NCBI GenBank assembly: GCA_026395595.1 | Contig: JAPLYL010000002.1 | Span: 122,111 to 186,110 of the forward strand | Direction of reading: 5' to 3' | DNA: 64,000 nucleotides | Source of the DNA: Candidatus Parcubacteria bacterium | GTDB lineage: Bacteria; Patescibacteriota; Minisyncoccia; Phycocordibacterales; CAIJYI01 | Shown: piece after piece, positions 6,740 through 54,141 of the stretch | How the letters are laid out: each line of letters opens with the position of its first letter | Numbering within the stretch: the stretch's first letter is position 1 | Made by a program: the position numbers and the translations under genes | The notes under the pieces: generated by a model | The model's input: only the letters and a program-made list of their open reading frames with translations | Told to the model about the DNA's origin: nothing | The model's database searches: none

Positions 6740-7756
6740 GTGTTTGTTATGACTTTTTTCCCGACTTCTTTTGCTTATGCCGGTGTTTTTACTGATTTTA
6801 CTGATTTTTTCGGAAACATACTTCAGCCGGTAAATGCAGACCAGAAAACAGTCAATAGTATTCACAAAAACTCTCAAATAGGAGCCGCTTTGGAAGCGCC
6901 CCTTAATCATGATCTTAATCAGTCTTCTAATGAAGAAATCCCTGTAGAAGTGGATGGTTCTGCTGTTTCCGCTAATCTTTCCGTTACACCCATTACTGTT
7001 AATGATAAGAACACCAATAACACAAATGACCAGATTAGCGTATATGTCGTCCACGAAGGAGACACTTTGTCTCAAATCGCCAAAATGTTTGATGTAAGCC
7101 CGAATACTATCCTTTGGGCGAACGATATTCCCCGAAAAAGTTCTCTCAAAGTGGGGCAAAAACTTGTTATTCTCCCTGTATCCGGTATTCAATATACTGT
7201 TAAAAAAGGAGACACGATAAACAAAATAGCAAAAGCTTTCTCTGCTGATGCTGGCGAAATACGTGATTTTAATGATATACAAGACAGTTCCCTTTCTATT
7301 GGAGACATTATTATCATTCCAAATGGAATGGAAACACCTGCGCCGGTAACAGCTCCGAAAACCATTAAAAAAATACTTACCAATATTTTTTCTCCTGAAC
7401 CAAACATTGAAACAGACGGATATTTTATTCGTCCCGCAAAGGGTGTGAAAACACAAGGAATACATGGACATAATGGTGTTGACTTTAGTGCTCGGTCTGG
7501 CGTTTCCGTTGTCGCGGCCGCTGAAGGCAAAGTACTTATCAGTCTCAGTTCTGGTTATAATGGCGGATATGGAAGCTATATCGTTATCAATCATCCGAAT
7601 GGAACTCAGACACTTTATGGACATTTAAGCGCTAACTTTGTTTCTGCCGGCGATTATGTTTCTCAAGGTCAGCTTATCGGAAACATCGGAAACACAGGAA
7701 AATCAACCGGGCCGCATCTCCATTTTGAAATTCACGGAGCAAAAAATCCATTTTAA
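6740..7756 (+). CDS. LysM-domain peptidoglycan DD-metalloendopeptidase (M23 family)
   Basis: N-terminal hydrophobic signal; two LysM repeats (GDTLSQIAKMF, GDTINKIAKAF); M23 motifs HNGVDF and GNTGKSTGPHLHFEIH. Confidence 0.85.
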   Translation: MFVMTFFPTSFAYAGVFTDFTDFFGNILQPVNADQKTVNSIHKNSQIGAALEAPLNHDLNQSSNEEIPVEVDGSAVSANLSVTPITVNDKNTNNTNDQISVYVVHEGDTLSQIAKMFDVSPNTILWANDIPRKSSLKVGQKLVILPVSGIQYTVKKGDTINKIAKAFSADAGEIRDFNDIQDSSLSIGDIIIIPNGMETPAPVTAPKTIKKILTNIFSPEPNIETDGYFIRPAKGVKTQGIHGHNGVDFSARSGVSVVAAAEGKVLISLSSGYNGGYGSYIVINHPNGTQTLYGHLSANFVSAGDYVSQGQLIGNIGNTGKSTGPHLHFEIHGAKNPF

Positions 7757-7758
7757 AA

Positions 7759-7786
7759 AACCGCTTCAAACGAAGCGGTTTTTTAT
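7759..7786 (+). terminator. rho-independent terminator
   Basis: AACCGCTTC-AAA-CGAAGCGGTT hairpin followed by TTTTT, immediately after the M23 gene stop. Confidence 0.75.
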
Positions 7787-8073
7787 GAGATGGTTTGTTC
7801 TCTTTCTTTCATATTCTTTCTGTTTTTAGTGAAAGACATAATCATAAAAATCGTGGAACCCGGCGTGATGGGGAGCATCTCCAATAATCCGTTTACTCCG
7901 GTCATAACCGCTGTTCCTCTCATATCGTATTGCGCAAGCCAAAAAGTAGTCTTCATAAAGGCAATAAAAATCGCCCCGATAAAAGGCAGGAGAATCCCCG
8001 CAGTATCCACTATAATGGCGCAAACCATCCCGCCGGCAAAAGCCACTCCCGACATTTTTTGATTCCCTTCCAT
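7783..8073 (-). CDS. hypothetical small membrane protein
   Basis: 96 aa with two hydrophobic segments; its extent overlaps the terminator, so I hold this call weakly. Confidence 0.3.
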   Translation of the reverse strand: MEGNQKMSGVAFAGGMVCAIIVDTAGILLPFIGAIFIAFMKTTFWLAQYDMRGTAVMTGVNGLLEMLPITPGSTIFMIMSFTKNRKNMKEREQTIS

Positions 8074-8208
8074 AGGATTTTATTATACAACAAAAGATGG
8101 TAACTCCTCACTTTTTATGTGAATATCAGAATCCGTTTCTCTCTATTCTTCAATACTTTTAATTATGTTTTTCTTGGATACTTTTATTATATGCGAGTTG
8201 TTATACGC

Positions 8209-8421
8209 CACGGTAAGTATTATCCTCTTTTCTTTCAATCGCGACTAATCTAATATCATTATCTTTTTTTGTAAAAATGATTCGCAAATCCCCTATGCGT
8301 ACCCGATAAAAATCTTTTTGTCCTTTCAGTTTTTTTATGCAAGAATTTTTTCCACACAAACCATTACTCGAGCACGTTCATTGGTTTGTAAAATTCGCAG
8401 AATTTTATCAATTCGTTCCAT
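8209..8421 (-). pseudogene. RelE/ParE-family toxin, frameshifted
   Basis: Minus-strand reading gives MERIDKILRILQTNERARVMVCVEKILA*, then in another frame ...KDFYRVRIGDLRIIFTKKDNDIRLVAIERKEDNTYRGV*, which is a RelE/ParE C-terminal signature; the frame break sits at T/A homopolymers around 8331-8350. Confidence 0.5.
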
Positions 8422-8614
8422 GAAGTTTTTTTAATGAGAGAAGCACATCTTTTGCTGATACCCCATTCGGATCTATGGTTGTAAAATCAGCAACTGTTTC
8501 CCATAAACTTTCATCTTCTGCGACTCCGATCGGCGATATTTCGAATATAGGTTGTGAACGACGAGCGACCGTAAAAGAAGCTCCTTTTTTCACTCGAAAA
8601 ATATATTCCTCCAT
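8408..8614 (-). CDS. putative antitoxin (by position upstream of the RelE-like remnant)
   Basis: 68-aa ORF whose stop overlaps the start of the RelE-like reading frame by 12 nt (ATG at 8421); I assign no family. Confidence 0.35.
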   Translation of the reverse strand: MEEYIFRVKKGASFTVARRSQPIFEISPIGVAEDESLWETVADFTTIDPNGVSAKDVLLSLKKLHGTN

Positions 8615-8719
8615 GTTTTCACGAAGTTCTTTAAGTCCGATTATTTACGGTCGTTTTAATTTGAGTGTTTTCATGCAGTAAGTTTATTTTAAGATAAACT
8701 TTGTGTCAAACTACGCTGA

Positions 8720-9358
8720 TCAGTTCTTCTTCTCCCTATACCCCAACGCTTCAGCAAGATGTTTTTCCTGAATATCTTCACTTCCCGCAAGGTCGGCGAT
8801 GGTTCGTGCGAGTTTGATGATACGGTGATAAGCACGCGGTGAAAGCGATATTCTGGTCGCGGCGGAATTGAGGAGATTTTTCTCTTTTTCGCCAAGTGGT
8901 GCAAATTTTTCCAAATCTTTTGCGCTCATTTCGGAGTTGGTATTTATCTTTTTGTCGGCAAACCTTTTTTCTTGAATTTCTCTTGCTTTTAGTACTCTGT
9001 CGCGAATATCTTTAGAGGTTTCCATTCCTTCCGGCACTTTGTCAGAGAGTTTTTTGTAGTCGATTTCGGCGACTGGTAGGAAAATATCTATTCGATCCAT
9101 AATCGGACCAGAAAGTTTACGTTCATATTTGTAAATATCTCCTGCCGAACAAACGCACTCTTTTTTAGTACCTTTAAACCCGCACGGACACGGATTCATC
9201 GCGGCAACCAAAATGAAATTCGCTGGAAAAACTTCCGTCCCCTTCGCTCTTGAAATGCTCACAAATTTTTCTTCCAGCGGTTCGCGCAAGCTCTCTAAAA
9301 CTCGTTTTTCAAACTCAGGGAATTCGTCTAAGGTATATGTCCTACAAAAAACATTCAT
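8720..9358 (-). pseudogene. 3' fragment (C-terminal ~205 aa) of a comM/yifB paralogue
   Basis: The translation is ~90% identical to residues ~130-338 of the 9869..10885 ORF (DEFPEFEKRVLESLREPLEEKFVSISRAKGTEV...LAEALGYREKKN); nucleotide identity is ~85%; it has no N-terminal ATPase part. Confidence 0.7.
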
Positions 9359-9392
9359 TTATATTGTGGGACAACTATTTAGGTTTTTACCA

Positions 9393-9423
9393 TCAAAAAA
9401 ACACTCTTGATTTCTCAAGAGTG
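9393..9423 (-). terminator. rho-independent terminator (perfect 10-bp stem)
   Basis: ACACTCTTGA-TTTC-TCAAGAGTGT followed by a T7 run on the minus strand, downstream of the lipoprotein gene. Confidence 0.7.
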
Positions 9424-9493
9424 TTACGCTGTAATCAGTTTTCTTTATTTCGCGGACAAAGTTTCAGACAAAAACTTATCCCATTCCTTTATG

Positions 9494-9748
9494 TCAACTT
9501 TTTTCTGAGAAAAAAATCGAAATTTTTTCATTCACCTCTTTTTTCATGTTTTCACAAGTAATGGCGTATCCCTGTTGATTATTAGGAATATCTAATTTAT
9601 GGCAACCTTTTTCTCCGTTATGGTTTGTCCAGATGCTATATTCGATCCCGTCTAAATTAATAGAATGTTGATTGTATTCATTTCCATCAGAACAAGCACT
9701 TAATACAAAAATCAAAATTATCACTGGTAATAAAAATAACTTTTTCAT
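9494..9748 (-). CDS. small lipoprotein
   Basis: 84 aa with a signal peptide ending in the lipobox LSAC; it sits between the two comM 3' copies. Confidence 0.55.
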   Translation of the reverse strand: MKKLFLLPVIILIFVLSACSDGNEYNQHSINLDGIEYSIWTNHNGEKGCHKLDIPNNQQGYAITCENMKKEVNEKISIFFSEKS

Positions 9749-9868
9749 TTTTTACCTCTCAATTTTTTAAACAATGGGAAATAAAACTTCAACAAAAGCA
9801 CCAAAAAGTAATATACCCAACCCACATGCAAGTATATAGAATTCTTGATTTTGTGTCAATAGTGTGTT

Positions 9869-11444
9869 TCAGTTCTTCTTCTCCCTATACCCCAACGCTT
9901 CGGCGAGATGTTTATCTTGTATGTTTTCACTTCCTGCCAAGTCGGCGATGGTTCGCGCAAGTTTTATAATCCGATGATACGCGCGCGGTGAAAGACCCAT
10001 GCGGGTTGCGGCGGAATTGAGGAGGTTTTTTTCTTTTTCTCCGAGCGGAGCGAATTTTTCCAAGTCTTTCGCGCTCATTTCGGAATTGGTATTTATACGT
10101 TTGCCTTCAAATCGTTTCGTTTGTGTTTCGCGAGCTTTTAAAACACGGTCGCGAATATTTTTTGAAGTATCGGTTCCCTCCGGCGCTTTGTCGGAAAGTT
10201 TTTTGTAATCAATTTCGGCGACGGGCAAAAAGATATCAATGCGATCCATAATTGGGCCGGAAAGTTTGCGTTCATATTTGTATATGTCGCCGGCCGAGCA
10301 GACGCACTCCTTTTTAGTACCCTTAAATCCGCACGGACAGGGATTCATCGCGGCGACCAAGATGAAATTCGCCGGAAACACTTCTGTCCCCTTCGCGCGA
10401 CTGATTGAAACAAATTTTTCTTCAAGCGGTTCTCGCAAGCTTTCCAAAACTCGTTTTTCAAATTCGGGAAACTCATCTAAAAACAAGACTCCGCGATGTG
10501 CGAGGGTTACTTCGCCCGGTTTTGGAAAAGCTCCGCCTCCGATCAGTGAAACATATGAAGAAGTATGATGCGGAGCGCGAAATGGGGCGGTGGTGACAAG
10601 CGGTTCTTTAAGTGTGCCGGAAATAGAGTGAATCCCCGTTATCTCCAGAGCTTCTTCAAAAGAAAGTTCTGGCAGTAATTGCGAAAAAGCGCGCGCCAGC
10701 ATAGTTTTCCCTGTACCGGGCGGGCCGAACATAAGAACATTATGCTTTCCTGTTGCGGCGATTTCCAAACCTCGTTTTGCGGTTTCTTGCCCCCCGTACG
10801 TCTTCAAAGCCGTATTCACGCAGTGTTTCTCTTTTTTCAACTCTTCCCGGAACATGAGGCGGAATAGCCTTCGAAGCTGTTTCATCTTCAGATGTCATAG
10901 TATTCAGGTGTCTAATGACCTGTAAAAGCGTTTTACATCCAAAAACCGTAATACCCTCAATGATTGAGGCTTCATCTGCATTCTCATATGGCAGAAAAAC
11001 TTCGGTAAAACCTTTTTCTTTTGCTTTTTGAACCAGAGGAAGCGCCCCTTTAATAGGACGCAGTTCCCCGTTTAATCCGAGTTCTCCCAAGAAAAGTTTT
11101 TCTTTGGTATCAAACTTTATTTCTCCGCCGGCTAACAAGTATGTTAATGCGCACGCGAGATCAAAAAGAGTCCCCTCTTTTTTTATATTTGCCGGAGTGA
11201 GAGAAATTATTATTTTCTGATTTTTTGCTTTCGGTGATTTATACCCGGAATTCTTTATTGCTGCGGAAATGCGGTCTTTTGATTCATCAACGGATTTGTC
11301 GGGAAGTCCTACGACGGAAAAAGAGGCCATTCCTTTAGAAATATCCACTTCCACACAGACAATATGAGCGCGCAGTCCGACAGATTGAGCGCTATAACTT
11401 TTTGCGAAACCCATGATACATAAGAAATAAGCAAAAAGAAACAA
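9869..11444 (-). CDS. comM: Mg-chelatase-like AAA+ ATPase ComM/YifB, interrupted by a 1-nt frameshift in a G6/C6 tract (~10791-10796)
   Basis: The 10740..11444 ORF gives the Lon-like N-terminal domain; the 9869..10885 ORF gives Walker A GPPGTGKT and the C-terminal Mg-chelatase domain; the frames join as ...GFEDVRG|QETAKRGLEIAATG, the expected YifB junction. Confidence 0.8.
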
Positions 11445-11499
11445 GAGAAAAGGAAAGTTACCCCCCTATTTTTCTTATTGCTTTTTTCTTTTTTCTCGT

Positions 11500-11862
11500 T
11501 TAATTGTTAATATGCTCTTTACATGTTTCTGCTGCTGGATTTGCTTCCAAACGGTCATCTTCTATTTCTCCTTGGCAAACTCGGCAAATGCCGTACTCCC
11601 CTTTTTCTATTCTTTCAAGAGCCGCTTTTATCTCATTAAAACGGACTTCCAGTTCTGTTTCAACCGCGCTTCTTTCTTCAAATTCTTCAAATTTGTCCGC
11701 GAGAGAATTTTCATCTTCGGTATCAATATCTTGCGTGTCTCCCGGAGTTGCCTCCCAGTCATTCGGATTTGACGGGTTTATTCGTCCGACGCCTTTCAGT
11801 TCTTCTCCAAGTTGTTTCTTTTCCATTAAAAGCGCTTCCTTAAAGTGTTCAATGTTTTTCAT
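11500..11862 (-). CDS. DksA/TraR-family C4 zinc-finger protein
   Basis: C-terminal CRVCQGEIEDDRLEANPAAETCKEH is a CxxC-N17-CxxC finger, preceded by an acidic coiled-coil region. Confidence 0.7.
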   Translation of the reverse strand: MKNIEHFKEALLMEKKQLGEELKGVGRINPSNPNDWEATPGDTQDIDTEDENSLADKFEEFEERSAVETELEVRFNEIKAALERIEKGEYGICRVCQGEIEDDRLEANPAAETCKEHINN

Positions 11863-12015
11863 ATGCGTTTATGATAGCAAATTTTTTTTCTTGCTACAAT
11901 TATTTCTATTTTATCCAAGCTATTCACATCTCCCCCTTATTTTTCTCGTCATTCTACCGCAAAGGTACCCAGTTTTCATAACCGCTTCATTCCTTCAGAA
12001 TTACCCTAAGTTTAC

Positions 12016-14042: not shown

Positions 14043-16268
14043 TTAAGATCTATTCGTACGCGGTGTAAAAGGACGGTCATGTCCGCCTCTGAATGTTCCG
14101 CGGTCTCCTCCAAAAGTTCTTCCCTGAGATCCGCTCGGACCAACACCCGGTGCTGCCGGTTTGACGCCTTTTCTTGCGGCAAATTCCGGATCGGCTTGCT
14201 TGATGGAAAGTTTCATTTTTCCTCGGTCATCAACTTCACGGATCATAACAGTGACTTCCTCCCCTTCTTGTACGACATCGCTTACTTTATTTACTCGGAA
14301 CGGGGCTAACTCCGAAATATGAACGAGCCCCTCGTTGTTTATGCCGAATTGCACGACGGCTCCGATATCATCCAAGACTTTGATGACCTTTCCGGTATAT
14401 TTTTCTCCCGGTTTGTAAACATGAGTCATTCCTTCAATAAATTTCTTTGCTTTTTCCGCTCCGCCGCCTTTTCCGGTGATAAATACCGTACCGTCATCGT
14501 CAATATCTATTTCCGTCCCAGTCGCTTCGCGTATTTTATTGATTATTTTTCCTCCCGGGCCGATAATACCTCCTATTTGTTCGGGAAGAATTTTAACCGT
14601 CAAAATTTTTGGCGCAAAGAGTGAAATATCCGCGCGAGGAGTTGCCAATTCTTTCTCAATGACATCAAGAATCTGAAGGCGAGCGGTTTTTGCCTTTGCA
14701 AAAGATTCCGTAAGAATTTTTACCGGTATGCCGTCTACTTTAACGTCCATCTGTATGGCGGTAATTCCTTCGCGAGTCCCGGCCACTTTCAAGTCCATAT
14801 CTCCGTGGTGATCTTCCGGACCTTGAATGTCCATGAGAATTTTGTAAGTCTTTTCGTCTTCCATCATGAGGCCCATCGCGATGCCGGCAACCGGCGCTTT
14901 GATAGGCACTCCGCCGTCCATAAGCGCCAAGGTTGAACCGCAAACCGAAGCCATAGAGGTTGAACCGTTTGATGCCATAGATTCGGATACGACGCGAATC
15001 GTATACGGGAAAATATCTTTTGTCGGGAGTACGGGGATAAGCGCTTTTTCTGCAAGTGCTCCGTGTCCGATCATTCTTCGGTTCGTTCCGCCCATTCTTC
15101 CTGTTTCACCGCCTGAATACGGAGGAAAATTGTAATGATGCATATACGTCTTCTCTTTTTCAGATCCGTCTATCGTTTGAGAATCTTTTGGCCCACCAAG
15201 AGTCAAGACAGAAAGAACATGCGTTCCTCCGCGATAAAATACGCCGGTACCATGAAGTACGGAAGAAATTCCGCCCGCTTTTGCCGAAAGATTTCGCAGT
15301 TCGTCCATCCCGCGTCCATCCGGTCTGCTGTTGTTTTTTATGGCCTCTTTGTGGAGAAGTTCATTTACTTGGTGGTGGAAATACTCTTTTGCTTTCCCCA
15401 CATCTTCGCCGGGAAGTTTTTCTTCTACTATTTTCCCCCATTCTTCCTCTAATTCATAACCGATTTTGCTTCCGGGGCCGACATAGAGCTTTTCTTTTAA
15501 TGTTTTTCCGACCTCTTCTTCAAAAAGGGCTTTAACGACAGCCGAATGACCAGTTGCGGGAATCAAAACTTTCTTTTTTCCTATTTCCTTCACAATCATT
15601 TTTTGGAAATCTTGGAGATTTTCAAGTTCTTTCTTTGCTTTTTCCAAGGCCTTGCTTGCTGTTTCTTCGTTTATTTCTTTTCCTCCGAGTTCTATCATAT
15701 TGATATTACCGTCTTTTCCGCAGACCGTCATATCCATTTCGTATTCGGGAAGTTCTCGTTCTGTGTTATTCGGATTGACGATAAATTCCGCTACTCCTTT
15801 TTTCTTCCCCAGTCTCAAAGCGGAAACCGGGCCATTGAAAGGAATATCGGAAGTGGCAAGAGCCAAAGAACCGGCAATAACGGAAAGAACATCAGTCTCG
15901 CATTCCCCAAGTGCCAATACCGTAATAACCACCTGTATTTCTTTGCGAATATGCTGGTCAAAGAGCGGTCTGATGGTTCGGTCTACAACGCGTCCGGAAA
16001 GTATGCCTTCGTTTGAGGGCTTCCCTTCTCTTCGCACATAACGGCTTCCAAGAATTTTCCCCGAAGCGTAAAAGCGTTCTTCGTAATCAACGGTGAGGGG
16101 CAGATAATCAATACCTTCTCTTTCGTTGCCTCCGATAACGGCGGTAGCGAGTACGACGGTGTCGTTATATCGCACGATAACCGAGCCATTCGTCTGGTCA
16201 GCAAGGTCAGTAAATTGAGCAATCAACGGTTTCCCCCCTATTTCTACGGAGTATTCTTTGCTTTGCAT
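14043..16268 (-). CDS. pnp: polyribonucleotide nucleotidyltransferase (PNPase) with a Gly/Arg-rich C-terminal tail
   Basis: Two RNase PH-like domains followed by KH and S1 domains; the ~45-aa C-terminal tail is RGG/GR-rich; the likely start is MQSKEY (the ORF track extends to 16319). Confidence 0.9.
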   Translation of the reverse strand: MQSKEYSVEIGGKPLIAQFTDLADQTNGSVIVRYNDTVVLATAVIGGNEREGIDYLPLTVDYEERFYASGKILGSRYVRREGKPSNEGILSGRVVDRTIRPLFDQHIRKEIQVVITVLALGECETDVLSVIAGSLALATSDIPFNGPVSALRLGKKKGVAEFIVNPNNTERELPEYEMDMTVCGKDGNINMIELGGKEINEETASKALEKAKKELENLQDFQKMIVKEIGKKKVLIPATGHSAVVKALFEEEVGKTLKEKLYVGPGSKIGYELEEEWGKIVEEKLPGEDVGKAKEYFHHQVNELLHKEAIKNNSRPDGRGMDELRNLSAKAGGISSVLHGTGVFYRGGTHVLSVLTLGGPKDSQTIDGSEKEKTYMHHYNFPPYSGGETGRMGGTNRRMIGHGALAEKALIPVLPTKDIFPYTIRVVSESMASNGSTSMASVCGSTLALMDGGVPIKAPVAGIAMGLMMEDEKTYKILMDIQGPEDHHGDMDLKVAGTREGITAIQMDVKVDGIPVKILTESFAKAKTARLQILDVIEKELATPRADISLFAPKILTVKILPEQIGGIIGPGGKIINKIREATGTEIDIDDDGTVFITGKGGGAEKAKKFIEGMTHVYKPGEKYTGKVIKVLDDIGAVVQFGINNEGLVHISELAPFRVNKVSDVVQEGEEVTVMIREVDDRGKMKLSIKQADPEFAARKGVKPAAPGVGPSGSQGRTFGGDRGTFRGGHDRPFTPRTNRS

Positions 16269-45880: not shown

Positions 45881-46255
45881 ATGAAACAAGAAATAATCAC
45901 ACAACTTCATAAAAATTTTGAGGATTACGCGCAAAAGACCAAAAACGGATTTGAATTTTGGTATGCTCGCGATTTACAGATTTTGCTCGGCTATAATGAA
46001 TGGAGAAATTTTCAAAAAGTCATTGAAAAAGCGAAAATCGCTTGTAAAAATACCGGTTTATCGGTTGATGACCATTTTGTTGACGCCAACAAAATGGTCG
46101 GTGTCGGATCGGGGGCAAAGAGAGAAATAGACGACATTTCTCTCACTCGCCACGCTTGTTACTTCATTGCTCAAAACGGTGACCCGAGAAAAGAAGAAAT
46201 CGCTTTCGCTATGGCATATTTTTCCGTTCAAATGAGAAAACAAGGAAGTCATTGA
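45881..46255 (+). CDS. DinD/Bro-N-like protein, N-terminal fragment (probably truncated)
   Basis: FEFWYARDLQILLGYNEWRNFQKVIEKAKIACKNTGLSVDDHFVDANKMVGVGSGAKREIDDISLTRHACYFIAQNGDPRKEEIAFAMAYF resembles E. coli DinD, but the ORF stops at 124 aa and similarity continues in another frame. Confidence 0.55.
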   Translation: MKQEIITQLHKNFEDYAQKTKNGFEFWYARDLQILLGYNEWRNFQKVIEKAKIACKNTGLSVDDHFVDANKMVGVGSGAKREIDDISLTRHACYFIAQNGDPRKEEIAFAMAYFSVQMRKQGSH

Positions 46256-46416
46256 AAAAAGAATTGCAGAAAGGGTCTATTCTGGCTACAATTTTCGTGT
46301 TTGAGGCACTGGTAGGACGTCCCACATTTAGATTTTAAAGAATTTGCAAAAAATTTGCAAGTTTTTTTCTTTTGTGTATAATAAAGATACTTTAGACATA
46401 AGTTTAAGCAAAATAT

Positions 46417-47670
46417 ATGCAAATTTCACTTATAGAATTTTCAGTAGAAAACTTCAGCGTTTTTAAAGAAAAGGCAACACTTTCTATGGTGGCGCGGAAA
46501 AATGATAACCATACATTTGAATCAAATGGTGAAAACCTACTGAAAACCTCTTTTATTTATGGTCCGAATGCCTCAGGAAAAACCTCTCTTTTGGACGCTT
46601 TTGTGAATTTGAAAACGGGAATTTTGTTTTCTTCCAATATGAAAGAAAATTCAGAGTTGCCCTATAATCCGTTTTTGGCATCGGAAAACACCAAAACAAA
46701 GCCAGTTTGGTTTGAGTTGGTTTTTTCTGCACTTGGGGATCATGCCGGAATATATAGATATTCCTTCTCTTTCTTGCCGGATCATATTGTTACGGAGAAT
46801 TTTACTAAAATATCTATAACTGGGGTAGAGGAACAACTTATTTCGCGAACGGGGCAAGATATAATACTTTCGGGTTGGGGAGATGACGTACAAATTTTGC
46901 GTGACAAAGCGCGTAAGGAAACACTTTTCTTGTCTGTTGCGGCACAATTCAATAATAAACTTGCCCTAAGTTTTGTGGAGGCGTTAAAAAATGTGAATAT
47001 CATTTCAGGCGTTACTTATGCAACCTATCAGCAATTCACTATAAAAAAATTCAAAGATGATCCGCTATACAAAGAAAGTATTTTAAAATACTTAAAAACT
47101 GCCGACTTTTGTATTTCCGGCGGTCGAACAAAAGAAATTGACATTCCATCTTTAGAAAACGTTAAAGATGAGCCAGATATGTTTTCTGCGGTTAAACGAA
47201 TGATAAAACACACCGCTTTGTTTTTCGAGCATCCTGTGTTTGGTAAAAACAACGAACCGGTCGGTGTGTTCGAGCTGTCTCTTGAAGAAGAGTCAACCGG
47301 TACACAAAATTTTCTTTCTATGCTTGGACCAATCATTAACACTCTTGAAACAGGTAAAGTTCTTGCCATAGACGAATTTGATAACAGCTTGCATCCGCTT
47401 TTGACAAAATTTATTGTCGATCTTTTTGAATCATCTGAGACAAATAAACACAACGCTCAACTTGTCGTAACGACACACGACACAAGTTTACTTTCGTATC
47501 GCGATGATTTTATCAAAGATCAATTTTGGTTTACCGATAAAGATGAATTTGGTTCAGCTCGGCTGTTTTCTCTTGCTGAATTTGATATAAGAAATGATAC
47601 TGAATTTGCGAAAAAATATCTGGAAGGTCGATTTGGCGCTCTGCCGTTTATCGGTTCCGTAAAAAAGTAA
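46417..47670 (+). CDS. AAA_21/ABC-type ATPase (OLD / AbiLi / AriA-like)
   Basis: Walker A GPNASGKTS near the N-terminus, Walker B/D-loop LAIDEFDNSLHP, and H-loop VVTTHD. Confidence 0.75.
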   Translation: MQISLIEFSVENFSVFKEKATLSMVARKNDNHTFESNGENLLKTSFIYGPNASGKTSLLDAFVNLKTGILFSSNMKENSELPYNPFLASENTKTKPVWFELVFSALGDHAGIYRYSFSFLPDHIVTENFTKISITGVEEQLISRTGQDIILSGWGDDVQILRDKARKETLFLSVAAQFNNKLALSFVEALKNVNIISGVTYATYQQFTIKKFKDDPLYKESILKYLKTADFCISGGRTKEIDIPSLENVKDEPDMFSAVKRMIKHTALFFEHPVFGKNNEPVGVFELSLEEESTGTQNFLSMLGPIINTLETGKVLAIDEFDNSLHPLLTKFIVDLFESSETNKHNAQLVVTTHDTSLLSYRDDFIKDQFWFTDKDEFGSARLFSLAEFDIRNDTEFAKKYLEGRFGALPFIGSVKK

Positions 47671-47674
47671 AGGA

Positions 47675-48298
47675 ATGTCTGTTTTTCAACGCAAACGCGA
47701 TACCCGTAAGATTCGCAAAGTAATTCGGATATACACGGAAGGTACAAAAACGGAGCCGAATTATTTCGGCTCGATAAAAGATGAATTGCGAATATCTGAA
47801 ATAGATATTCAAATTCAAGGGGTGCGAGGATTTAACAATCATACTTTACCGCTCGTTGGGTCGGTGATTGAAAGAAAAAAAGAGGAAGAAAAAAATAACG
47901 ATTTTGAAACGGAATGGTGGGTTGTTTTTGATAAAGATGATTTTCCTGATTTTAATAGTGCTATTGATTTGGCACAAAAACACGGCATTAACGTTGTCTA
48001 TTCCAACGAGTGTTTTGAATTATGGTTTATTCTCCATTTTGAGTTTTTGCAGACTTCTCTCGGAAGGAATAATTTTGAACCAAAGTTATCAAAGTTGCTC
48101 GGCAGAAAATATGAAAAGAAGAGTTCGGATATTTACGATCTGATAAAAGATAAAGAATCCAACGCGATTCGTTACGCAAAAAAGCTGGAAAAAATGCATG
48201 ATGATGAAAAAGTGAGTTCTCCGGAACAAAGAGTTCCATCAACTTTAGTCTATAAACTGGTCGAAAGATTACGATCACTAAAAACCGAAAGAGAATAG
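47675..48298 (+). CDS. RloB-like (Toprim-like) protein
   Basis: N-terminal IYTEGTKTEPNYF matches the RloB signature (CEGxTExxYF); starts 5 nt after the ATPase stop. Confidence 0.7.
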   Translation: MSVFQRKRDTRKIRKVIRIYTEGTKTEPNYFGSIKDELRISEIDIQIQGVRGFNNHTLPLVGSVIERKKEEEKNNDFETEWWVVFDKDDFPDFNSAIDLAQKHGINVVYSNECFELWFILHFEFLQTSLGRNNFEPKLSKLLGRKYEKKSSDIYDLIKDKESNAIRYAKKLEKMHDDEKVSSPEQRVPSTLVYKLVERLRSLKTERE

Positions 48299-48302
48299 TT
48301 TT

Positions 48303-48887
48303 ATGACCGCCAAAACCACAAATCGCCATATTAAAATTGTTAATAAAGCAAAGCAAAAAATCAAAGAACTTCTTGAAGATCCGAATTGTGTTTGGAGAAC
48401 CATGAGAATACTTAAGGGGCACACAACGGGATTATCCGAACAAGAAATCCTTGATATTTTGTCGAATCTTGGAGCAACGAGTTCTGTCGGAGAAAAAGGT
48501 GAAAAAATATGGAAGTTACATTCCCGTGGCGATAATGATACCCACAAACAAAAAAAGCAATCTCGAAATAAAATTATTTCTCACTCTGACTATTGGAAAA
48601 ATATTTGGTCCCAATGTTCCAAAATTAAATTCAGATACGTTATAATTTCCATGTTGTTAGTTTCTGCATATCTGGGTTACATAAAATTTTCTCCCGAGGT
48701 AAGCACTCCTCTTGGTAAATTTGCATTTAACACAAGCGAATCAAATAAAGTTCTTAGTTCGTCGGTTTTATCTGCTGATATAAACCCAAAAAAATGGACG
48801 TTTCTGTTTTTGGGTTGGTCTCAAGTATTGATTACCGTAAACCCTTATTCAATGTTCAAAAGAAATGGGAAGGATACAAAGGATTAA
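48303..48887 (+). CDS. hypothetical protein, predicted wHTH N-terminus plus one TM
   Basis: Starts 5 nt after the RloB stop; TM segment FRYVIISMLLVSAYLGYIKF. Confidence 0.45.
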   Translation: MTAKTTNRHIKIVNKAKQKIKELLEDPNCVWRTMRILKGHTTGLSEQEILDILSNLGATSSVGEKGEKIWKLHSRGDNDTHKQKKQSRNKIISHSDYWKNIWSQCSKIKFRYVIISMLLVSAYLGYIKFSPEVSTPLGKFAFNTSESNKVLSSSVLSADINPKKWTFLFLGWSQVLITVNPYSMFKRNGKDTKD

Positions 48888-49147
48888 ATACAACAAAAGA
48901 ACAAGCTATACTCTTTAATTCTGGAGATACTGGGTCAGGAAAAATTTGGGCAGATTTGGAAAGTACGCATCTGTATGACGGAAAAAATGTTAAAATCACG
49001 TGCGTTTTTGGAGGAGAATGGGCTCAAAGAATTGAAGTCCTTGGAGAAAAAGAACATGGAACCCGCGAATTAACTTTTTCGGGAATCATTAATGGTGATT
49101 TGTCACAAGGAAATCTCCCCGTGTTAGAAGATTGTAAGTTGTATTAA
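48794..49147 (+). CDS. hypothetical protein (overlaps the previous ORF by 94 nt in the +2 frame)
   Basis: Its ATG follows an A7 run directly; the translation is plausible and beta-rich; the start is uncertain. Confidence 0.35.
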   Translation: MDVSVFGLVSSIDYRKPLFNVQKKWEGYKGLNTTKEQAILFNSGDTGSGKIWADLESTHLYDGKNVKITCVFGGEWAQRIEVLGEKEHGTRELTFSGIINGDLSQGNLPVLEDCKLY

Positions 49148-49156
49148 TCACACAAT

Positions 49157-49384
49157 GTGAGTAAAAGCGGTGAGCATGTTGTCGCGATTCAGTCTAAAAT
49201 CAAAAAAGAAAAAAATTACTGTATGTTGTTCTCGAAATTTTTTGAGGCCAAAAGCTTGAAAAAAATGCTGATCGAGTCGTTCCAGCAGATCCACTCAAAG
49301 ATTATTTGGAATACGTGCGATAGTAGGAAAGAGAGAGTTGACACAAACAAACCCGCCAAACCTTACGGTTTGGGCGGGGGATAA
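49157..49384 (+). CDS. hypothetical small protein
   Basis: 75-aa ORF, the last in this same-strand cluster. Confidence 0.3.
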   Translation: MSKSGEHVVAIQSKIKKEKNYCMLFSKFFEAKSLKKMLIESFQQIHSKIIWNTCDSRKERVDTNKPAKPYGLGGG

Positions 49385-49491
49385 ATACAATCCTAATATC
49401 CCATAGGCGAGGGTAACTTGCATTACGTATACAATACGTATCCGTAGCACCTATTAGTCAAGCTCTTCCGCTGTGGACAAGTGCATAAAAA

Positions 49492-49522
49492 CAACTCCGC
49501 AAAGTTTGCGGAGTTATTTTTT
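49492..49522. terminator. bidirectional terminator
   Basis: AACTCCGCAAA-GTT-TGCGGAGTT followed by TTTTTT. Confidence 0.7.
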
Positions 49523-49529
49523 ATCTTTC

Positions 49530-50873
49530 TTATTCTTCCGTTTTTTCCTCTTTTTTCTTTTTGGTTTTCTTCGGTTCTTCTTTTGCCGTTTCGGCGGAGG
49601 CGGATTCCACTTCTCCTTTCAGTACTTCTTCTACCACCTCTTTTTCCGTGATGACTTCTTCGGTTGGGGTTTCATTTATTGATTCTTCAAATTCTTTCAC
49701 TTCCTTCTCTTCTTCCAGTTCTTTTTCTTCCTCCTCTACTGCTTCTTCCGTTTCTTTGGTGGAATGAATGTCTATTTTCCAGCCGGTCAATTTGGCGGCC
49801 AGTCTCGCGTTTTGACCTCCTTTTCCGATAGCGAGGGAAAGCTGGTCTTCGGCGACGATGACTGAGGCACGCTTTTCTTCGGGGCGGAGTTCTACGGAGA
49901 GGATTTTGGCGGGAGCGAGAGAATCGGAGATGAATTTCTTTGCATCTTCCGACCATTCTATAATATCTATCTTTTCTCCTCCGAGTTCGCTCATGACGGT
50001 GGTTACTCGGACGCCTCTTTGTCCGACACAGGAACCGATCGGGTCAATGTGCTCATCGTTTGAATACACGGCGATTTTTGCGCGTGAACCCGGTTCGCGG
50101 GCGATATTTTTGATCTCAACGACCCCACTCATGACTTCTGGCGCTTCCATCTTGAAAAATTCTTCAATGAGTTTTGGGTGGGTGCGGGAAAGGCGGAGGT
50201 TTATTCCTCTCGGTGTGTCTTCAACGCGATAAAGAAAGGCTTTGATGCGCTCTCCTTGGCGATATTTTTCACGGGAGATCTGTTCTTCGTAAGGAAGAAT
50301 AGCGGTCGTTTTTCCGAGGTCTACGAAGATATTCCCCTTTTCAATTCTTTGAACCATTCCGTTGACGACTTCTCCTTCTTTTTTGCCGAATTCGTCCATC
50401 GTCGTGCTTTTCTCCGCTTCACGGATTTTCTGAATAATGACCTGTTTTGCGGTTTGTGCGGCAATGCGTCCGAAATCTTCTTTGGTTTCAAGAGGGAAGA
50501 CGAGTTCTTCTTCAACGGCGGCATCGCGTTTGATTTTCTTGGCATCTTCAAGAAGAATATGGTGTTCGCTGTTGAAGCGAGTACGAAGGTCGTTTTCGTC
50601 TTTTTCTTCCTCAATCGGTTCACCATTTTCATCAAGCGGAGCCGGCATTTTAACGATGGATTCGTCAACGATGACCTTTACCTGCGAGAAATCGGTCGCT
50701 CCTGTGTCCAAATCAAATTTGGCGCGGACGATTTGCCCCTTTTTACCGTATTCTTTTTTGTAGGCGGCAGCGAGAGACATTTCTATCGCTTCCAAGATCT
50801 TTTCTTTGGAAATGCCTTTTTCTTCCTCCATTTGCTCAAGTGCCGAGCGGAGCGTTTTAAGATCAAATAACAT
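49530..50873 (-). CDS. nusA: transcription termination/antitermination factor NusA
   Basis: N-terminal domain, then S1 and two KH domains, and an acidic/K-rich C-terminal tail. Confidence 0.9.
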   Translation of the reverse strand: MLFDLKTLRSALEQMEEEKGISKEKILEAIEMSLAAAYKKEYGKKGQIVRAKFDLDTGATDFSQVKVIVDESIVKMPAPLDENGEPIEEEKDENDLRTRFNSEHHILLEDAKKIKRDAAVEEELVFPLETKEDFGRIAAQTAKQVIIQKIREAEKSTTMDEFGKKEGEVVNGMVQRIEKGNIFVDLGKTTAILPYEEQISREKYRQGERIKAFLYRVEDTPRGINLRLSRTHPKLIEEFFKMEAPEVMSGVVEIKNIAREPGSRAKIAVYSNDEHIDPIGSCVGQRGVRVTTVMSELGGEKIDIIEWSEDAKKFISDSLAPAKILSVELRPEEKRASVIVAEDQLSLAIGKGGQNARLAAKLTGWKIDIHSTKETEEAVEEEEKELEEEKEVKEFEESINETPTEEVITEKEVVEEVLKGEVESASAETAKEEPKKTKKKKEEKTEE

Positions 50874-51019
50874 ATATTTGTTGTTACACTTATAATTTTG
50901 ACAATTTTGTTAAAAAAATGAGCCCGTACGGGACGGACTCAAGGTATGAATATATAGTACTCTGTGATGCCATTTTGTCAAGGAACATGCTTGTCAACAG
51001 TTATCCACTGTTTATCATA

Positions 51020-51048
51020 TTGACGAATACATGACAGGAAGTATAATA
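51020..51048 (+). promoter_or_regulatory. near-consensus sigma70 promoter TTGACG-17-TATAAT
   Basis: TTGACG at 51020-51025 and TATAAT at 51043-51048; the DnaA-box-like TTATCCACT at 51001-51009 lies just upstream; AGGAGA SD and ATG at 51055. Confidence 0.5.
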
Positions 51049-51054
51049 GGAGAC

Positions 51055-51795
51055 ATGCACCCCATACAACAAAAGATACTCTCTCTGGCGAAGAGTCAAA
51101 ATATCGCCGGGCTTACACTGCGGAAGATTGGCGAACTTATCAGTGAGCCGGACGCTCCGCAAAAGATCAAACACCATATTGATAAACTGAAAGAAAAAGG
51201 ATTATTGCTTTCTGGAGAAGGTGGCAAGCATCTGAAACCCGCTTCTGGTGGAATAGACAAAATGTCCAGTCTTGTATCTCTGCCGATACTCGGCTCTGCG
51301 AACTGCGGGGAAGCAACGATGTATGCCGACGGGGCGATTGAAGGCTATCTGAAAGTATCGCTTCGCATTTTGGGAGAAAAATTCAGAAATAAATTGGATG
51401 ACCTCTTTGTTTTGCGCGCTTCCGGAAATTCCATGAATCGCGCGAATGTTCACGGTAAAACCATTGACGATGGCGATTATGTTATCGCGGAAAGAATTCA
51501 TGAAGCGCCGAAAAGCGGGGAATATATCGTCTCCATTATTGAAGGTTTGGCGAATATCAAAAAATTCCTGATTGATACCAAAAACGAGCATATTATTCTC
51601 GCTCCCGAATCAAGTTTGGATTTTTCACCGATTTATATACATAAAGAAGACTATTCCGGCTATTTTGTTGGTGGCCGAGTAGTAGATGTCATCAAAAAAC
51701 CGGATGAATTCATGGATTCCTCTGCTGGCGATATCCTCAAATACGGCAAACCGATACGAGAGGTAGATTACTCAAGCAAGAAAAAGAAAAAATAA
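51055..51795 (+). CDS. LexA-like repressor (wHTH plus S24 peptidase domain)
   Basis: N-terminal HTH; C-terminal LRASGNSM (catalytic Ser) and ...KK (Lys) S24 motifs; the ORF track's start at 51031 would contain the -10 element. Confidence 0.7.
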   Translation: MHPIQQKILSLAKSQNIAGLTLRKIGELISEPDAPQKIKHHIDKLKEKGLLLSGEGGKHLKPASGGIDKMSSLVSLPILGSANCGEATMYADGAIEGYLKVSLRILGEKFRNKLDDLFVLRASGNSMNRANVHGKTIDDGDYVIAERIHEAPKSGEYIVSIIEGLANIKKFLIDTKNEHIILAPESSLDFSPIYIHKEDYSGYFVGGRVVDVIKKPDEFMDSSAGDILKYGKPIREVDYSSKKKKK

Positions 51796-52895
51796 TGGAA
51801 ACGAACAAGAAAGTTTCTTTAAATAGTAATTTTACGGAATTTTTACTGTATACTACTCCAAACCATAAGGTAAAGGTTGAAATTTTCTTGCGTGATGAAA
51901 ATATCTGGCTGACGCAAAAATTAATTGCACGGCTTTTTGATTGTTCTTCTGATAATGTTTCTTTTCACTTGAAAAACATTTTTGAAAGCGGTGAATTGCT
52001 GGAAAATTCAGTTACCGAGGAATTCTCGGTAACTGCCGGTGATGGTAAAAAGTATAAGACAAAACATTATAATTTAGATGCGATTATTTCGGTAGGGTAT
52101 CGAGTAAATTCCGCCAATGCGACTCAGTTTCGTATCTGGGCGACCGAACGCTTGAAAGAATATATTATCAAGGGGTTTACTATGGACGATGAACGCTTGA
52201 AAAACCCAAATACGATCTTTGGTAAGGATTATTTTGAAGAACAACTGGCAAGAATTAGAAATATCCGATCTAGCGAAAGACGAATGTATCAGAAAGTTAC
52301 CGATATCTATGCTGAATGTAGCGCTGATTATTCTCCAAATAGCGATATAACGAAAGAATTTTTTGCAACAATTCAAAACAAACTTCATTTTGCAATAACC
52401 GGTAAAACTGCCGCGGAAATTATTTATGAAAGAGTAAAAAATGAAAAACCGAATATCGGACTTACTTCGTGGAAAAACTCTCCAAAAGGAAGAATCCGAG
52501 AAACCGATGTTATCATTGCCAAAAATTACTTAAACGAAAAAGAACTTGACCACCTGAATAGAATTGTCACTATGTACCTTGATTTTGCGGAAATGCAAGC
52601 GAAACGAGGCATTCTTATGAGAATGAAAGATTGGACATCAAAACTGGATGCATTTCTGAAGTTTAACGAGCAGGAAATTTTATCCAACGCAGGAAAAATC
52701 AGCCATGAAGTTGCTGAAGCTTTAGCTCTTGAAGAATACGAAAAATACAGGATAGAACAGGATAAAAATTATATTTCTGATTTTGACAGAGAAGTGAAGA
52801 AAATTTTAGATGTAAAGAAAAAACATGCCAAATTTTCGGAAAGTGATAATTTTTTTGATAAAAATGTTGTAAAAGATAAAAATGAAGGAAATTAA
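51795..52895 (+). CDS. RhuM-family (virulence protein RhuM-like) protein
   Basis: HYNLDAIISVGYRVNSANATQFRIWATERLKEY is the RhuM core signature; its start overlaps the LexA-like stop (ATAATGG). Confidence 0.7.
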   Translation: METNKKVSLNSNFTEFLLYTTPNHKVKVEIFLRDENIWLTQKLIARLFDCSSDNVSFHLKNIFESGELLENSVTEEFSVTAGDGKKYKTKHYNLDAIISVGYRVNSANATQFRIWATERLKEYIIKGFTMDDERLKNPNTIFGKDYFEEQLARIRNIRSSERRMYQKVTDIYAECSADYSPNSDITKEFFATIQNKLHFAITGKTAAEIIYERVKNEKPNIGLTSWKNSPKGRIRETDVIIAKNYLNEKELDHLNRIVTMYLDFAEMQAKRGILMRMKDWTSKLDAFLKFNEQEILSNAGKISHEVAEALALEEYEKYRIEQDKNYISDFDREVKKILDVKKKHAKFSESDNFFDKNVVKDKNEGN

Positions 52896-53012
52896 CAAAA
52901 TTAAACAACTTAAAAATGTTATTAAAGATGCAATAGACGAGCGTTTTAATACAGTGATAAGGTAGAAGTTAAACTGGAAGAGATCATAAATAAAGCTGTA
53001 CTTGAATATGAA

Positions 53013-53315
53013 ATGCTTCTTACTGAAGATGTAAAGCAGGTACTTAAAAATAATTATAAAATAGACTTTTATAACCGTGGATATCTTGGTGATAAAATAA
53101 AAATTTACGAAGCCACCGTTGGGAAAAATGAGTTCAGTAAATTATTGTGGAAAATTAATATGATACGTAATGATTTGAGTCACACACGTATTGATAAACT
53201 TTTTTATAAAAAGCAGGATCTATCTCTAAGAGAAACAAAAGAGGTTTTACTTACTGATTTATTTACTCAAATGATAAACCACGGTGAACCATCCTTAAAA
53301 GTGAATTCAAAATAA
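53013..53315 (+). CDS. hypothetical protein
   Basis: 100-aa ORF. Confidence 0.35.
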   Translation: MLLTEDVKQVLKNNYKIDFYNRGYLGDKIKIYEATVGKNEFSKLLWKINMIRNDLSHTRIDKLFYKKQDLSLRETKEVLLTDLFTQMINHGEPSLKVNSK

Positions 53316-53319
53316 TTTT

Positions 53320-54141
53320 ATGCACAACAATTTAAAAAACCTTGCTATTTTTGAAGGGAATCATATTCGCCGGCTGTGGGACGGGGAAAAAGAACTGTGG
53401 TATTTTTCAATTATCGATGTGATTCAAGTTTTAACAGAAAGCCCGAGACCAAGAAAATACTGGAATGCTTTAAAAACAAAGTTAAAAAACGAAGGAAGTC
53501 AGTTGTCCCAGAAAGTGGGACAACTGAAAATGGAATCTCTTGACGGAAAAATGTACCTTACTGATGTGGCGGATACAGAAACGCTTTTACGACTTATCCA
53601 ATCAACGCCTTCTCCAAAAGCTGAGCCATTTAAGCTTTGGTTGGCAAAGGTTGGATATGAAAGAATGAGGGAAATGGGCGATCCGGAAATAGCGCTTAAC
53701 CGAAGCCGTGTCTATTGGAGAGAGCAGGGGAGAAGTGAAAAATGGATTGAACAAAGAATGACAGGACAAGAAACGAGAAATAAACTCACTGATTACTGGA
53801 GCGAGCACAAAGTAAAGAAAGGCGAAGAATTTGCCATATTGACGAACATCATACATCAAGAATGGAGCGACATATCAGTAAAAGAACACAAAGGACTGAA
53901 AGGTTTAAAAACACAAAATCTTCGTGATCATATGAGTGAAGAAGAATTGATTTTTACCGCGCTGGCTGAACTTTCCACAAGAAGAATTGCAGAAACAGAT
54001 AAGGCCGAAGGATTGGAAGAAAACAAAATTCCGGCAAAAAAAGGCGGAAAAATCGCAAAAGACGCGCGCCTCACTTTAGAAGAAAAAACAGGGAGCAGCG
54101 TCATCACTGGTAAAAACTTTTTGTTGCCATCTAAAAAATAA
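53320..54141 (+). CDS. Bro-N/DinD-like domain protein (antirepressor-like)
   Basis: NHIRRLWDGEKELWYFSIIDVIQVLTESPRPRKYW...AEPFKLWLAKVGYE is Bro-N-like; 273 aa. Confidence 0.55.
   Translation: MHNNLKNLAIFEGNHIRRLWDGEKELWYFSIIDVIQVLTESPRPRKYWNALKTKLKNEGSQLSQKVGQLKMESLDGKMYLTDVADTETLLRLIQSTPSPKAEPFKLWLAKVGYERMREMGDPEIALNRSRVYWREQGRSEKWIEQRMTGQETRNKLTDYWSEHKVKKGEEFAILTNIIHQEWSDISVKEHKGLKGLKTQNLRDHMSEEELIFTALAELSTRRIAETDKAEGLEENKIPAKKGGKIAKDARLTLEEKTGSSVITGKNFLLPSKK

Follow-up and report, generated by a model that had tools for sequence, protein, structure and literature searches.

Why should a gene be followed by a second copy of its own 3' end, with another gene lodged between the two? The question is raised by comM (yifB) in the genome of a Candidatus Parcubacteria bacterium, in a stretch of 64,000 nucleotides (nt) that is referred to here as the window (assembly GCA_026395595.1, contig JAPLYL010000002.1, positions 122,111 to 186,110 of the forward strand). 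The window lies inside a 189,338-bp contig of a metagenome-assembled genome, and the locus carries the tags NTZ13_01295-NTZ13_01335 and encodes the proteins MCX6735700-MCX6735708. We propose that window positions 8201-11414 are probably a two-module case of a comM-attached cassette array, which recurs in one narrow Parcubacteria clade and grows by Campbell-style cassette insertion. This reading builds on the architecture of the repeats, a boundary that is exact to the nucleotide, a motif that seems to be under selection, an empty site in a relative, and the selection signature and mosaicism of the repeated segments.

The comM gene lies on the minus strand, and its 3' part occurs twice:

9869 to 10480, minus strand: tail module copy A, comM codons 312-514 and stop, currently fused to the comM 5' part
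10451 to 10480, minus strand: codons 312-321 in the intact gene (LDEFPEFEKR, Walker B), the start point of all displaced fragments and the candidate crossover region
8720 to 9331, minus strand: tail module copy B, displaced, codons 312-514 and stop (203 codons plus the stop), in frame and free of stops and indels
9332 to 9351, minus strand: junction motif TTTTTTGTAGGACATATACC, non-coding, immediately 5' of displaced copy B
9361 to 9379, plus strand: degenerate inverted copy of the motif, ATATTGTGGGACAACTATT, 10 nt upstream of it, which pairs with the motif as a hairpin in this genome

The two copies are 1.15 kb apart in direct orientation, and the frame of copy A is continuous through codon 312. 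An earlier note on this DNA had recognized the second copy and its identical final tail, and both stand. The extent needed correction: the copy has 203 codons rather than about 205 and occupies 8720-9331, not 8720-9358, and the 212-amino-acid (aa) open reading frame (ORF) at 8720-9358 is copy B preceded by nine spurious N-terminal residues. The note's estimates of about 85% nucleotide and about 90% amino-acid identity likewise become 81.6% in a codon alignment (84% in a MAFFT alignment that includes the flanks; blastn E = 1e-146) and 93.6% (190/203). All 13 amino-acid differences fall within residues 410-500. The last 33 nt, including the TGA, are identical in A and B (9901-9869 and 8752-8720), and a promoter-like sequence, TTGACA-N17-TAnACT, follows the stop of both copies. 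The terminal ~30 nt of comM (GAAGCGTTGGGGTATAGGGAGAAGAAGAAY) are near-invariant in every full-length gene and fragment, synonymous positions included; the rest of the tail is ~80% identical.

The left end of the displaced copy is not arbitrary. All 15 aligned junctions, and three more in the related contig L111, share one start nucleotide, at the TTR of codon L312 in the Walker B segment LDEFPEF. Directly 5' of every full-size fragment stands a non-coding 20-nt motif, TTTTTTGTGGGACAnCTACC, which is not comM sequence; at this position, intact genes read CGN GGN GTN YTN TTY. Over the 15 distinct junctions, mean pairwise identity is 0.83 in the motif (-20..-1) and 0.28-0.29 in the 40 nt before it (-60..-21). 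The first ten fragment codons reach 0.89 at all positions and 0.68 at third positions. Judged from this comparison, the motif is under selection, because the block is well kept while synonymous sites are saturated. Within the 64 kb it occurs at this junction only, apart from the degenerate inverted copy; an upstream sequence resembling such an inverted copy is seen at about 4 of the 15 junctions. No Rfam family matched the junction motif. The possibility of an attC-like hairpin or RNA motif was considered and rejected, as no structure is conserved over the 15 junctions and the hairpin of the window is not general. There are also tail-only fragments, with left ends that vary (aa 445, 453, 460, and 483).

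The earlier note had advised comparing the locus in relatives, and this comparison proved fruitful: the same layout recurs with the fixed boundary and the motif. The gene order common to relatives is PNPase, a protein without Pfam match, a dksA-like gene, comM, a variable slot, a gene for a 96-aa membrane protein, and a LysM/M23 peptidase. At least six related Parcubacteria contigs carry one or more comM 3' fragments between comM and the 96-aa membrane-protein gene. Contig L091 has at least seven over ~8 kb, L111 at least four over ~9 kb, L102/L103 at least two before the contig end, and L092 one, and fragments on short contigs (L093-L101) were found in JGI metagenomes by the junction pattern. 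The comM gene itself is intact in the array-bearing L091, L092, L102, and L111, and the protein identity of the tails to the working tail is 87-97%. The cargo is unrelated from unit to unit, and includes RelB/YafQ, a ParE-like pair, NYN, Fic, dCMP-type deaminase, TrmB-type regulators, a DUF4143 ATPase, small lipoproteins, and membrane proteins. In the nearest relative, L085, the site is empty: the 96-aa gene follows ~40 nt after comM, and the flanks match the window at 88-89%. The slot of L081 contains RelB/YafQ and then a 46-53-nt remnant of the comM tail, probably the scar of an earlier displacement. This 95%-identical relative has no full fragment, and the remnant with its post-stop sequence (8150-8216) lies between RelB/YafQ and the 96-aa gene. 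A second comM fragment within 6 kb was found at none of 80 comM loci of other species, and within the clade L088 and L112 have no comM fragments. Arrays are present in this genome and in Ga0376277_0007876, Ga0376277_0003621, k141_1346892, and k141_932836; CALREZ01, k141_763860, the ERR4194702 lineage, and Ga0376277_0005662 are free of them.

Units can be followed from one genome to another. The window segment 9406-8213, which contains the motif, copy B, and a toxin-antitoxin pair, matches L091 14808-16025 (fragment f4 and the pair) in a single alignment block, with 79% identity over 1220 nt; the cargo upstream differs. Fragment 1 of L092 with RelB/YafQ matches the full-length tail of L081 with RelB/YafQ, and the full-length tail of L091 with NYN matches fragment 2 of L102 with NYN. 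A tail and the cargo downstream of it thus appear to form a conserved travelling unit, and the paired matches indicate that a unit joined to the working gene in one genome can elsewhere stand, displaced, behind a newer one.

Some copies have been modified further. In L091 (17177-18453) and L111 (14388-15663), a reverse-strand DUF4143/AAA_14 ATPase gene lies within a comM tail fragment, flanked by the motif with ~30 nt of tail and, at its other end, by residues ~442-514. Identity between the two copies is 81%, and the arrangement is that of a nested insertion into a displaced tail. Short in-frame G+C-rich insertions occur in several comM copies, full-length ones included (P0002, residues ~437-447; P0007, ~370-377; P0006), and similar ones are present in fragments of L094, L101, and L102. 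Examples are NPPSPKATDGRR, RSTGGGQA, PAFALRSYGGQGKKW, and PPSLSGATARRR, and they resemble a small repeat element with a tolerance or preference for coding sequence.

The divergence between the tails bears on where they evolved. Between A and B the proportion of synonymous differences (pS) is 0.64 (synonymous distance, dS, ~1.5, effectively saturated), the proportion of nonsynonymous differences (pN) is 0.057, and the ratio of nonsynonymous to synonymous distance (dN/dS) is 0.040. Orthologous tails of different genomes have a dN/dS of 0.015-0.045, and fragment-fragment and fragment-full pairs of 0.015-0.077. Both A and B therefore evolved inside working comM genes and were joined later, because a dN/dS of ~0.04 at saturated pS, with no stops or indels, is like that of orthologues. 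Copy B can have lain silent during no more than a small part of the A-B divergence, and the tails in general have passed most of their history within functional genes.

Comparison with L085 gives the tail a history of its own. The pS is 0.39 for comM codons 1-311, 0.36 for the dksA-like gene, and 0.18 for the 96-aa gene, and it is 0.60 for comM codons 312-514; a two-rate model of synonymous divergence is favoured with a log-likelihood gain of ~8. Across genomes, the 5' parts of comM track relatedness (pN 0.035 to 0.14), and the tails are roughly equidistant (pN 0.03-0.06). The tails are mosaic, with a four-gamete pattern in 19 of 28 informative amino-acid site pairs. The RelB/YafQ units of L111 and L092 are 87% identical, against 74% for their comM genes. 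Equidistant mosaic tails and the similarity of the RelB/YafQ units therefore point to exchange of tails and cassettes between lineages. Synonymous identity is raised locally at codons 310-325 and at the tail end; these peaks are modest and not unique.

The cassettes of the window and their flanks are as follows:

11500 to 11862, minus strand: dksA/traR-type zinc-finger gene (Pfam zf-dskA_traR), left neighbour of comM in all relatives (L081, L085, L088, L091, L092, L102, and L111)
9831 to 9859, minus strand: promoter-like site directly after the comM stop and upstream of the lipoprotein gene, TTGACA-17-TATACT, 11/12
9494 to 9748, minus strand: cargo gene for an 84-aa predicted lipoprotein, signal peptide with lipobox LSAC, ~31% G+C, no homologues
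9400 to 9425, minus strand: intrinsic terminator of the lipoprotein cassette, 11-bp stem and T run
8681 to 8709, minus strand: promoter-like site after the copy B stop, TTGACA-17-TAAACT, 10/12
8408 to 8674, minus strand: antitoxin gene belonging to the older cassette, decayed, with a TAA in frame at codon 10 (8645-8647), a sense codon in the intact 88-aa L091 homologue
8201 to 8421, minus strand: decayed ParE/RelE-like toxin gene of the older cassette, frame-breaking deletion where the intact 80-aa L091 homologue reads GDVLRLD
7783 to 8073, minus strand: gene for the 96-aa membrane protein, which forms the conserved right flank of the variable slot or array

The lipoprotein gene and its terminator had been noticed between the copies before, and they are confirmed at 9494-9748 and 9425-9400. 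Direct reading of the 84-aa protein sequence (MKKLFLLPVIILIFVLSAC) shows a lipobox of the form L-[AS]-[GA]-C. No homologue was found among 5.8 billion proteins. Accordingly, the gene was not found elsewhere between comM fragments, where the earlier note had suggested looking for it; other genomes hold other cargo there. Promoter-like sites after the stop are also present in other cassettes. The L091 homologues of the decayed pair are intact (15542-15808 and 15795-16037; 88 aa and 80 aa) and overlap like toxin-antitoxin pairs. In the window both genes of the pair are broken, and the toxin scores 22.0 bits against PF05016 (cut-off 23), with the C-terminal half only. An Rfam scan of window positions 7500-12000 gave only sub-threshold chance matches.

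These observations suggest how such an array could grow. A cassette unit would begin with comM codons 312-514 and a promoter right behind the stop; one or a few cargo genes would follow, then an intrinsic terminator and finally the 20-nt motif. As a circular intermediate, it would recombine with the resident comM by a Campbell-type event at or near the motif and the Walker-B codon block. The incoming tail would become the working 3' end of comM, and the previous tail, now headed by the motif, would be pushed downstream together with its own cargo. Repeated captures would build arrays, and deletions between repeats would trim them. The position of the crossover inside the tail would merely decide which copy counts as the "old" one. 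Crossovers would mostly lie at the motif-proximal end of the tail, because a crossover must fall near codon 312 for a silent tail to enter the working gene. A cassette whose tail is damaged would be lost, since its insertion would break comM. The simplest explanation for the dN/dS near 0.03 of silent fragments is that tails regularly pass through the working state.

Applied to the window, this scheme would give the following history. Tail B and the ParE-like toxin-antitoxin unit may have joined comM first. The lipoprotein unit would have entered later, on this reading with tail A, and displaced B, after which the toxin-antitoxin pair decayed. Since copy B is still undamaged, the displacement was probably recent relative to the depth of tail diversity.

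Several observations weigh against the proposed insertion scheme. With synonymous sites saturated, neither the sequences nor the distances to relatives tell whether A or B was the incoming tail. The change point in synonymous divergence is significant but broad, with the best fit at codons 252-300 and not exactly at 312. Some junctions are homologous by descent (L111 14407 and L091 f4), so that independent insertions are fewer than the junctions counted. In L088 and L112 the slot varies with no fragments left behind. The consensus fold of the 15 junctions (-3.6 kcal/mol) contains no supported helix and thus no conserved secondary structure. By sequence resemblance, the motif is not known to match a recombination site. 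Dif/Xer sites, IS91 or rolling-circle ends, the integron GTTRRRY core, homing-endonuclease co-conversion, and DNA-uptake sequences were considered; what bears on them is the restriction of the motif to this junction within the 64 kb and the failure to find a corresponding enzyme gene. A motif scan of viral contigs gave no match. Neither a circular form nor an excision product was seen. No integrase or resolvase gene, and no tyrosine- or serine-recombinase domain, was found in the arrays, in the 64-kb window (ORFs of at least 120 aa, Pfam), or in the cargo of unknown function (Pfam, PHROGs).

Could the tandem arise more simply? One explanation is that it is an assembly artefact, in which variants of strains or species were mis-joined or a repeat was collapsed or expanded, and in which the G6 run that splits comM (described below) is a consensus error. 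The source is a metagenome-assembled genome, and related contigs often end within arrays. In addition, the independent Logan contig L090 (SRR20698640), which is 100% identical to window positions 8723-9898 and thus covers the lipoprotein gene and copy B, starts and ends in the shared 30-nt tail; by itself it fits a tandem or a circular arrangement alike. However, the exact repeat shared by A and B is just 33 nt, below typical short-read length, and the junction between motif and copy B is not comM sequence, so that joining two comM alleles cannot create it. A like architecture is found in JGI, ENA, NCBI, and Logan assemblies of different samples, a second assembler reproduces the G6 run, and other G/C runs of at least six break no genes. 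An artefact, which the earlier note had named as the outcome that would undo its reading of the downstream copy, is thus very unlikely. Equally hard to sustain is the view that the comM 3' end was duplicated locally in tandem and diverged in place, with the lipoprotein gene inserted between the copies. The direct copies at 1.15 kb with their identical 33-nt tail are what such an event would leave. But 203 codons of a non-functional copy would have had to reach saturation at a dN/dS of 0.04 without a stop or indel, and the A-B distance equals that of orthologues from different species. Copy B shares its start nucleotide and motif with fragments in five other genomes, and together with its cargo it is homologous to a unit of L091. 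Upkeep of B by gene conversion would predict synonymous similarity between A and B, contrary to the data. We regard this explanation as the least credible. The earlier note had spoken of an old duplication or an insertion that carried a 3' fragment along; the insertion comes close to the data, and the old duplication finds no support in a saturated pS at such a dN/dS.

A further question is which enzyme would drive cassette insertion. As no recombinase lies in or next to the arrays, the enzyme would act in trans from elsewhere, or host homologous recombination would suffice. A site-specific component is favoured on account of the motif. In its full form, this would be a gene-capture platform of new design, with an attachment site in the Walker B block of comM, which codes for an essential domain, cassettes that carry the last 40% of the gene and a 20-nt recognition motif, so that each capture restores the host gene, and a trans-acting recombinase that reads the motif and codons 312-321; we advance it tentatively. 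Rather unlikely, though worth serious attention, is that the same end structure arose with no dedicated recombinase, by RecA-type recombination between comM tails and natural transformation, the boundary and motif being inherited from one ancestral element. Relatives of the phylum are naturally transformable. The lack of a recombinase in or near any array would be expected under this explanation, as would the mosaic tails with four gametes in 19 of 28 site pairs. The longest stretch of A-B identity is the 33-nt tail and codons 312-321 are the next well-conserved segment, so that diverged repeats could still recombine there, and the varied left ends of the tail-only fragments look like products of recombination or deletion. 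Against it, a neutral non-coding block of 20 nt would not keep 83% identity beside sequence at 28% when synonymous sites are saturated. The boundary between cargo and motif is as sharp as that between motif and codon 312, and tails of ~80% identity are poor substrates for homologous recombination.

Among known systems, the closest kind is that of integrative elements in the 3' part of a conserved gene that carry a replacement end. Such elements include e14 and phage 21, which land in the 3' part of icd in E. coli. The general principle of integration at the 3' part of a gene with a replacement copy, and the tandem arrays of such elements, have been described (PMC7192596), and the tandem ssrA islands of Dehalococcoides are an example for tRNA/tmRNA islands (PMC3146451). 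The comM units resemble these elements in that insertion occurs inside a conserved gene, the element-borne 3' end keeps the gene intact, the old end persists as a direct repeat, repeated insertion leads to tandem arrays, and relatives have empty sites. In the window, copies A and B flank the insert as direct repeats, the frame is continuous over the proximal junction, and L085 provides the empty site. Unlike these elements, the comM units lack an integrase, measure ~0.3-1.5 kb, and contain one or two cargo genes. The duplicated segment is also large (612 nt, 40% of the gene), and a conserved 20-nt motif stands at every junction.

Integrons offer a second comparison. Like integron cassettes, the comM units are small and recombinase-less, share a single orientation, and sit at one locus with a conserved sequence of recombination type between them; any enzyme would have to work in trans, and the diverse cargo often includes toxin-antitoxin genes. 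Unlike integrons, the comM arrays have no adjacent intI or attI; the neighbours of comM in all loci are the dksA-like gene, the protein without Pfam match, and PNPase. They also lack an attC-like conserved hairpin, their cassettes have their own promoter and terminator, and the repeat between cassettes holds a 609-nt coding fragment of a housekeeping gene. The orphan 3' ends of rhs and cdiA are similar in layout, with a full-length gene followed by its own 3' fragments, each with a small downstream gene, and swappable by recombination. However, the tails of rhs and cdiA are highly variable toxin domains with immunity genes and variable 5' limits, whereas the comM tails are 93-97% identical at the protein level and not polymorphic, their limit is nucleotide-exact, and the variable part is unrelated cargo. 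Cis-mobilizable elements (CIMEs) and integrase-less satellites of the tycheposon type also lie between att-type repeats, encode no recombinase, and gather beside a target gene. The known ones adjoin integrase-bearing helpers at the same site; a helper was not found at the comM loci. A literature search for comM or yifB cassettes in these bacteria found nothing specific.

The comM gene is also a target of larger elements. AbaR/Tn6022 uses it in Acinetobacter. Prophages are known to interrupt yifB (PMC7192596). These elements and the viral contigs L105-L107, which are Tn7-like transposons or serine-recombinase phages, share the target gene with the cassettes. They interrupt comM, however, with fragment starts at aa 224, 271, and 349, and they are large, carry their own machinery, and do not restore the gene. 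A Tn7-like insertion of the AbaR/Tn6022 type was rejected for the window, which contains no transposase genes; its duplication, at 612 nt, is not the short one of such elements, and the frame is restored at the junction. Pieces of the comM 3' part form the ends of four IMG/VR phage contigs from unrelated hosts (L105-L107 and L110), with starts at residues 224, 271, 349, and 275, and the comM piece of L106 adjoins ORFs with a zinc ribbon of the serine-recombinase type. In other bacteria, comM thus appears to be a repeated phage target, at other positions.

The comM gene of the window is itself split, upstream of the junction:

10740 to 11414, minus strand: comM N-terminal frame, 224 aa from the ATG at 11414 to a frameshift-induced stop at 10740, exactly protein MCX6735705.1 and also present in the Logan assembly
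10790 to 10795, minus strand (C6 on the plus strand): G6 run, whose additional G breaks comM at the RGQ codons, ~codon 207
9869 to 10789, minus strand: comM C-terminal frame, which resumes the protein after removal of one G, stop at 9869

The earlier note had proposed that the two YifB frames rejoin when one G is removed, which holds true; the run that it placed at about 10791-10796 exists and lies one base lower. The frames overlap at the G6, and deletion of one G in silico gives a continuous 514-aa ComM that reads ...GFEDVRGQETAKRGLEIAATG... and has the complete domain set, in the order ChlI (PF13541, E = 1e-38), Mg_chelatase (PF01078, E = 4e-87), and Mg_chelatase_C (PF13335, E = 3e-32). Over the full length, this protein is 95, 92, 91, and 89% identical to intact proteins (514-525 aa) encoded on related metagenomic contigs, and the closest intact relative has 514 aa and 95% identity over 100% of its length. 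A single uninterrupted frame is absent from the window, and the same break occurs in an independent Logan contig, L104 (SRR20698640), which carries the G6 and matches window positions 10652-11595 at 100% over 944 nt, including the 224-aa truncated product. The second assembler thus speaks against a simple assembly error at the G6, an outcome that the earlier note had allowed for. Six further G/C runs of at least six in the window all lie in intact full-length genes (PNPase, NrdD, ClpP, malic enzyme, ADP-forming acyl-CoA synthetase, and GltX), and a general homopolymer problem in the assembly is not indicated. Because the G6 recurs in a second assembly and the other G/C runs leave their genes intact, the additional G (G5 -> G6) is more likely a real, recent inactivating mutation than an error. 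It would be an event separate from cassette insertion.

A reversible slippage switch (phase variation) or programmed frameshifting at the G run would instead let part of the population express comM. G5/G6 tracts are prone to slippage, and the remainder of comM is undecayed, with a pN versus L085 of 0.035 that is close to the 0.029 of dksA. In relatives, however, the Arg-Gly-Gln codons read CGA GGT/GGA/GGG CAA with no homopolymer. Because relatives encode RGQ in this way, the comparison indicates that the run is a lineage-specific G5 that gained one base, and a conserved slippery site is excluded. The context of a slippery site or stimulator is not evident at the tract, and one recent mutation suffices to explain the break; a switch is therefore improbable. 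Public annotation lists the two halves of comM as separate proteins (MCX6735705.1 and MCX6735704.1) and the displaced fragment as an "ATP-binding protein" (MCX6735702.1). Split comM genes and such "ATP-binding protein" fragments deserve to be flagged as parts of pseudogenes.

Two further observations concern other parts of the window. A separate island of mobile or defence type occupies 45881-54141 and comprises Bro-N (45881-46255), an AAA_21 ATPase with RloB (46417-48298), an S24 peptidase/repressor-like protein (51031-51795), RhuM (51795-52895), and a second Bro-N (53320-54141). At 1348-1719, an ORF of the 23S rRNA intervening-sequence protein family (PF05635) lies outside rRNA genes, between genes for a UvrD-type helicase and an rRNA adenine dimethylase.

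Bacteria belonging to the Candidate Phyla Radiation have tiny genomes, and to our knowledge very few mobile elements or routes of gene acquisition are known in them. The comM locus is a defined hotspot for the gain and loss of toxin-antitoxin, Fic, NYN, deaminase, ATPase, and lipoprotein genes, in which the stack of displaced comM tails provides a readable record of the mechanism. The selection signature points to an unusual form of purifying selection, exerted on a mobile element via a host gene, and it is best explained if every tail has to function once it has been exchanged into the gene. If the proposed scheme is true, the cassettes would be a further example of a mobile element that repairs its target gene. 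The layout suggests an undescribed route of gene capture in these bacteria, and if a dedicated recombinase does read the 20-nt motif, it would represent a compact site-specific insertion system in organisms for which genetic tools are scarce.

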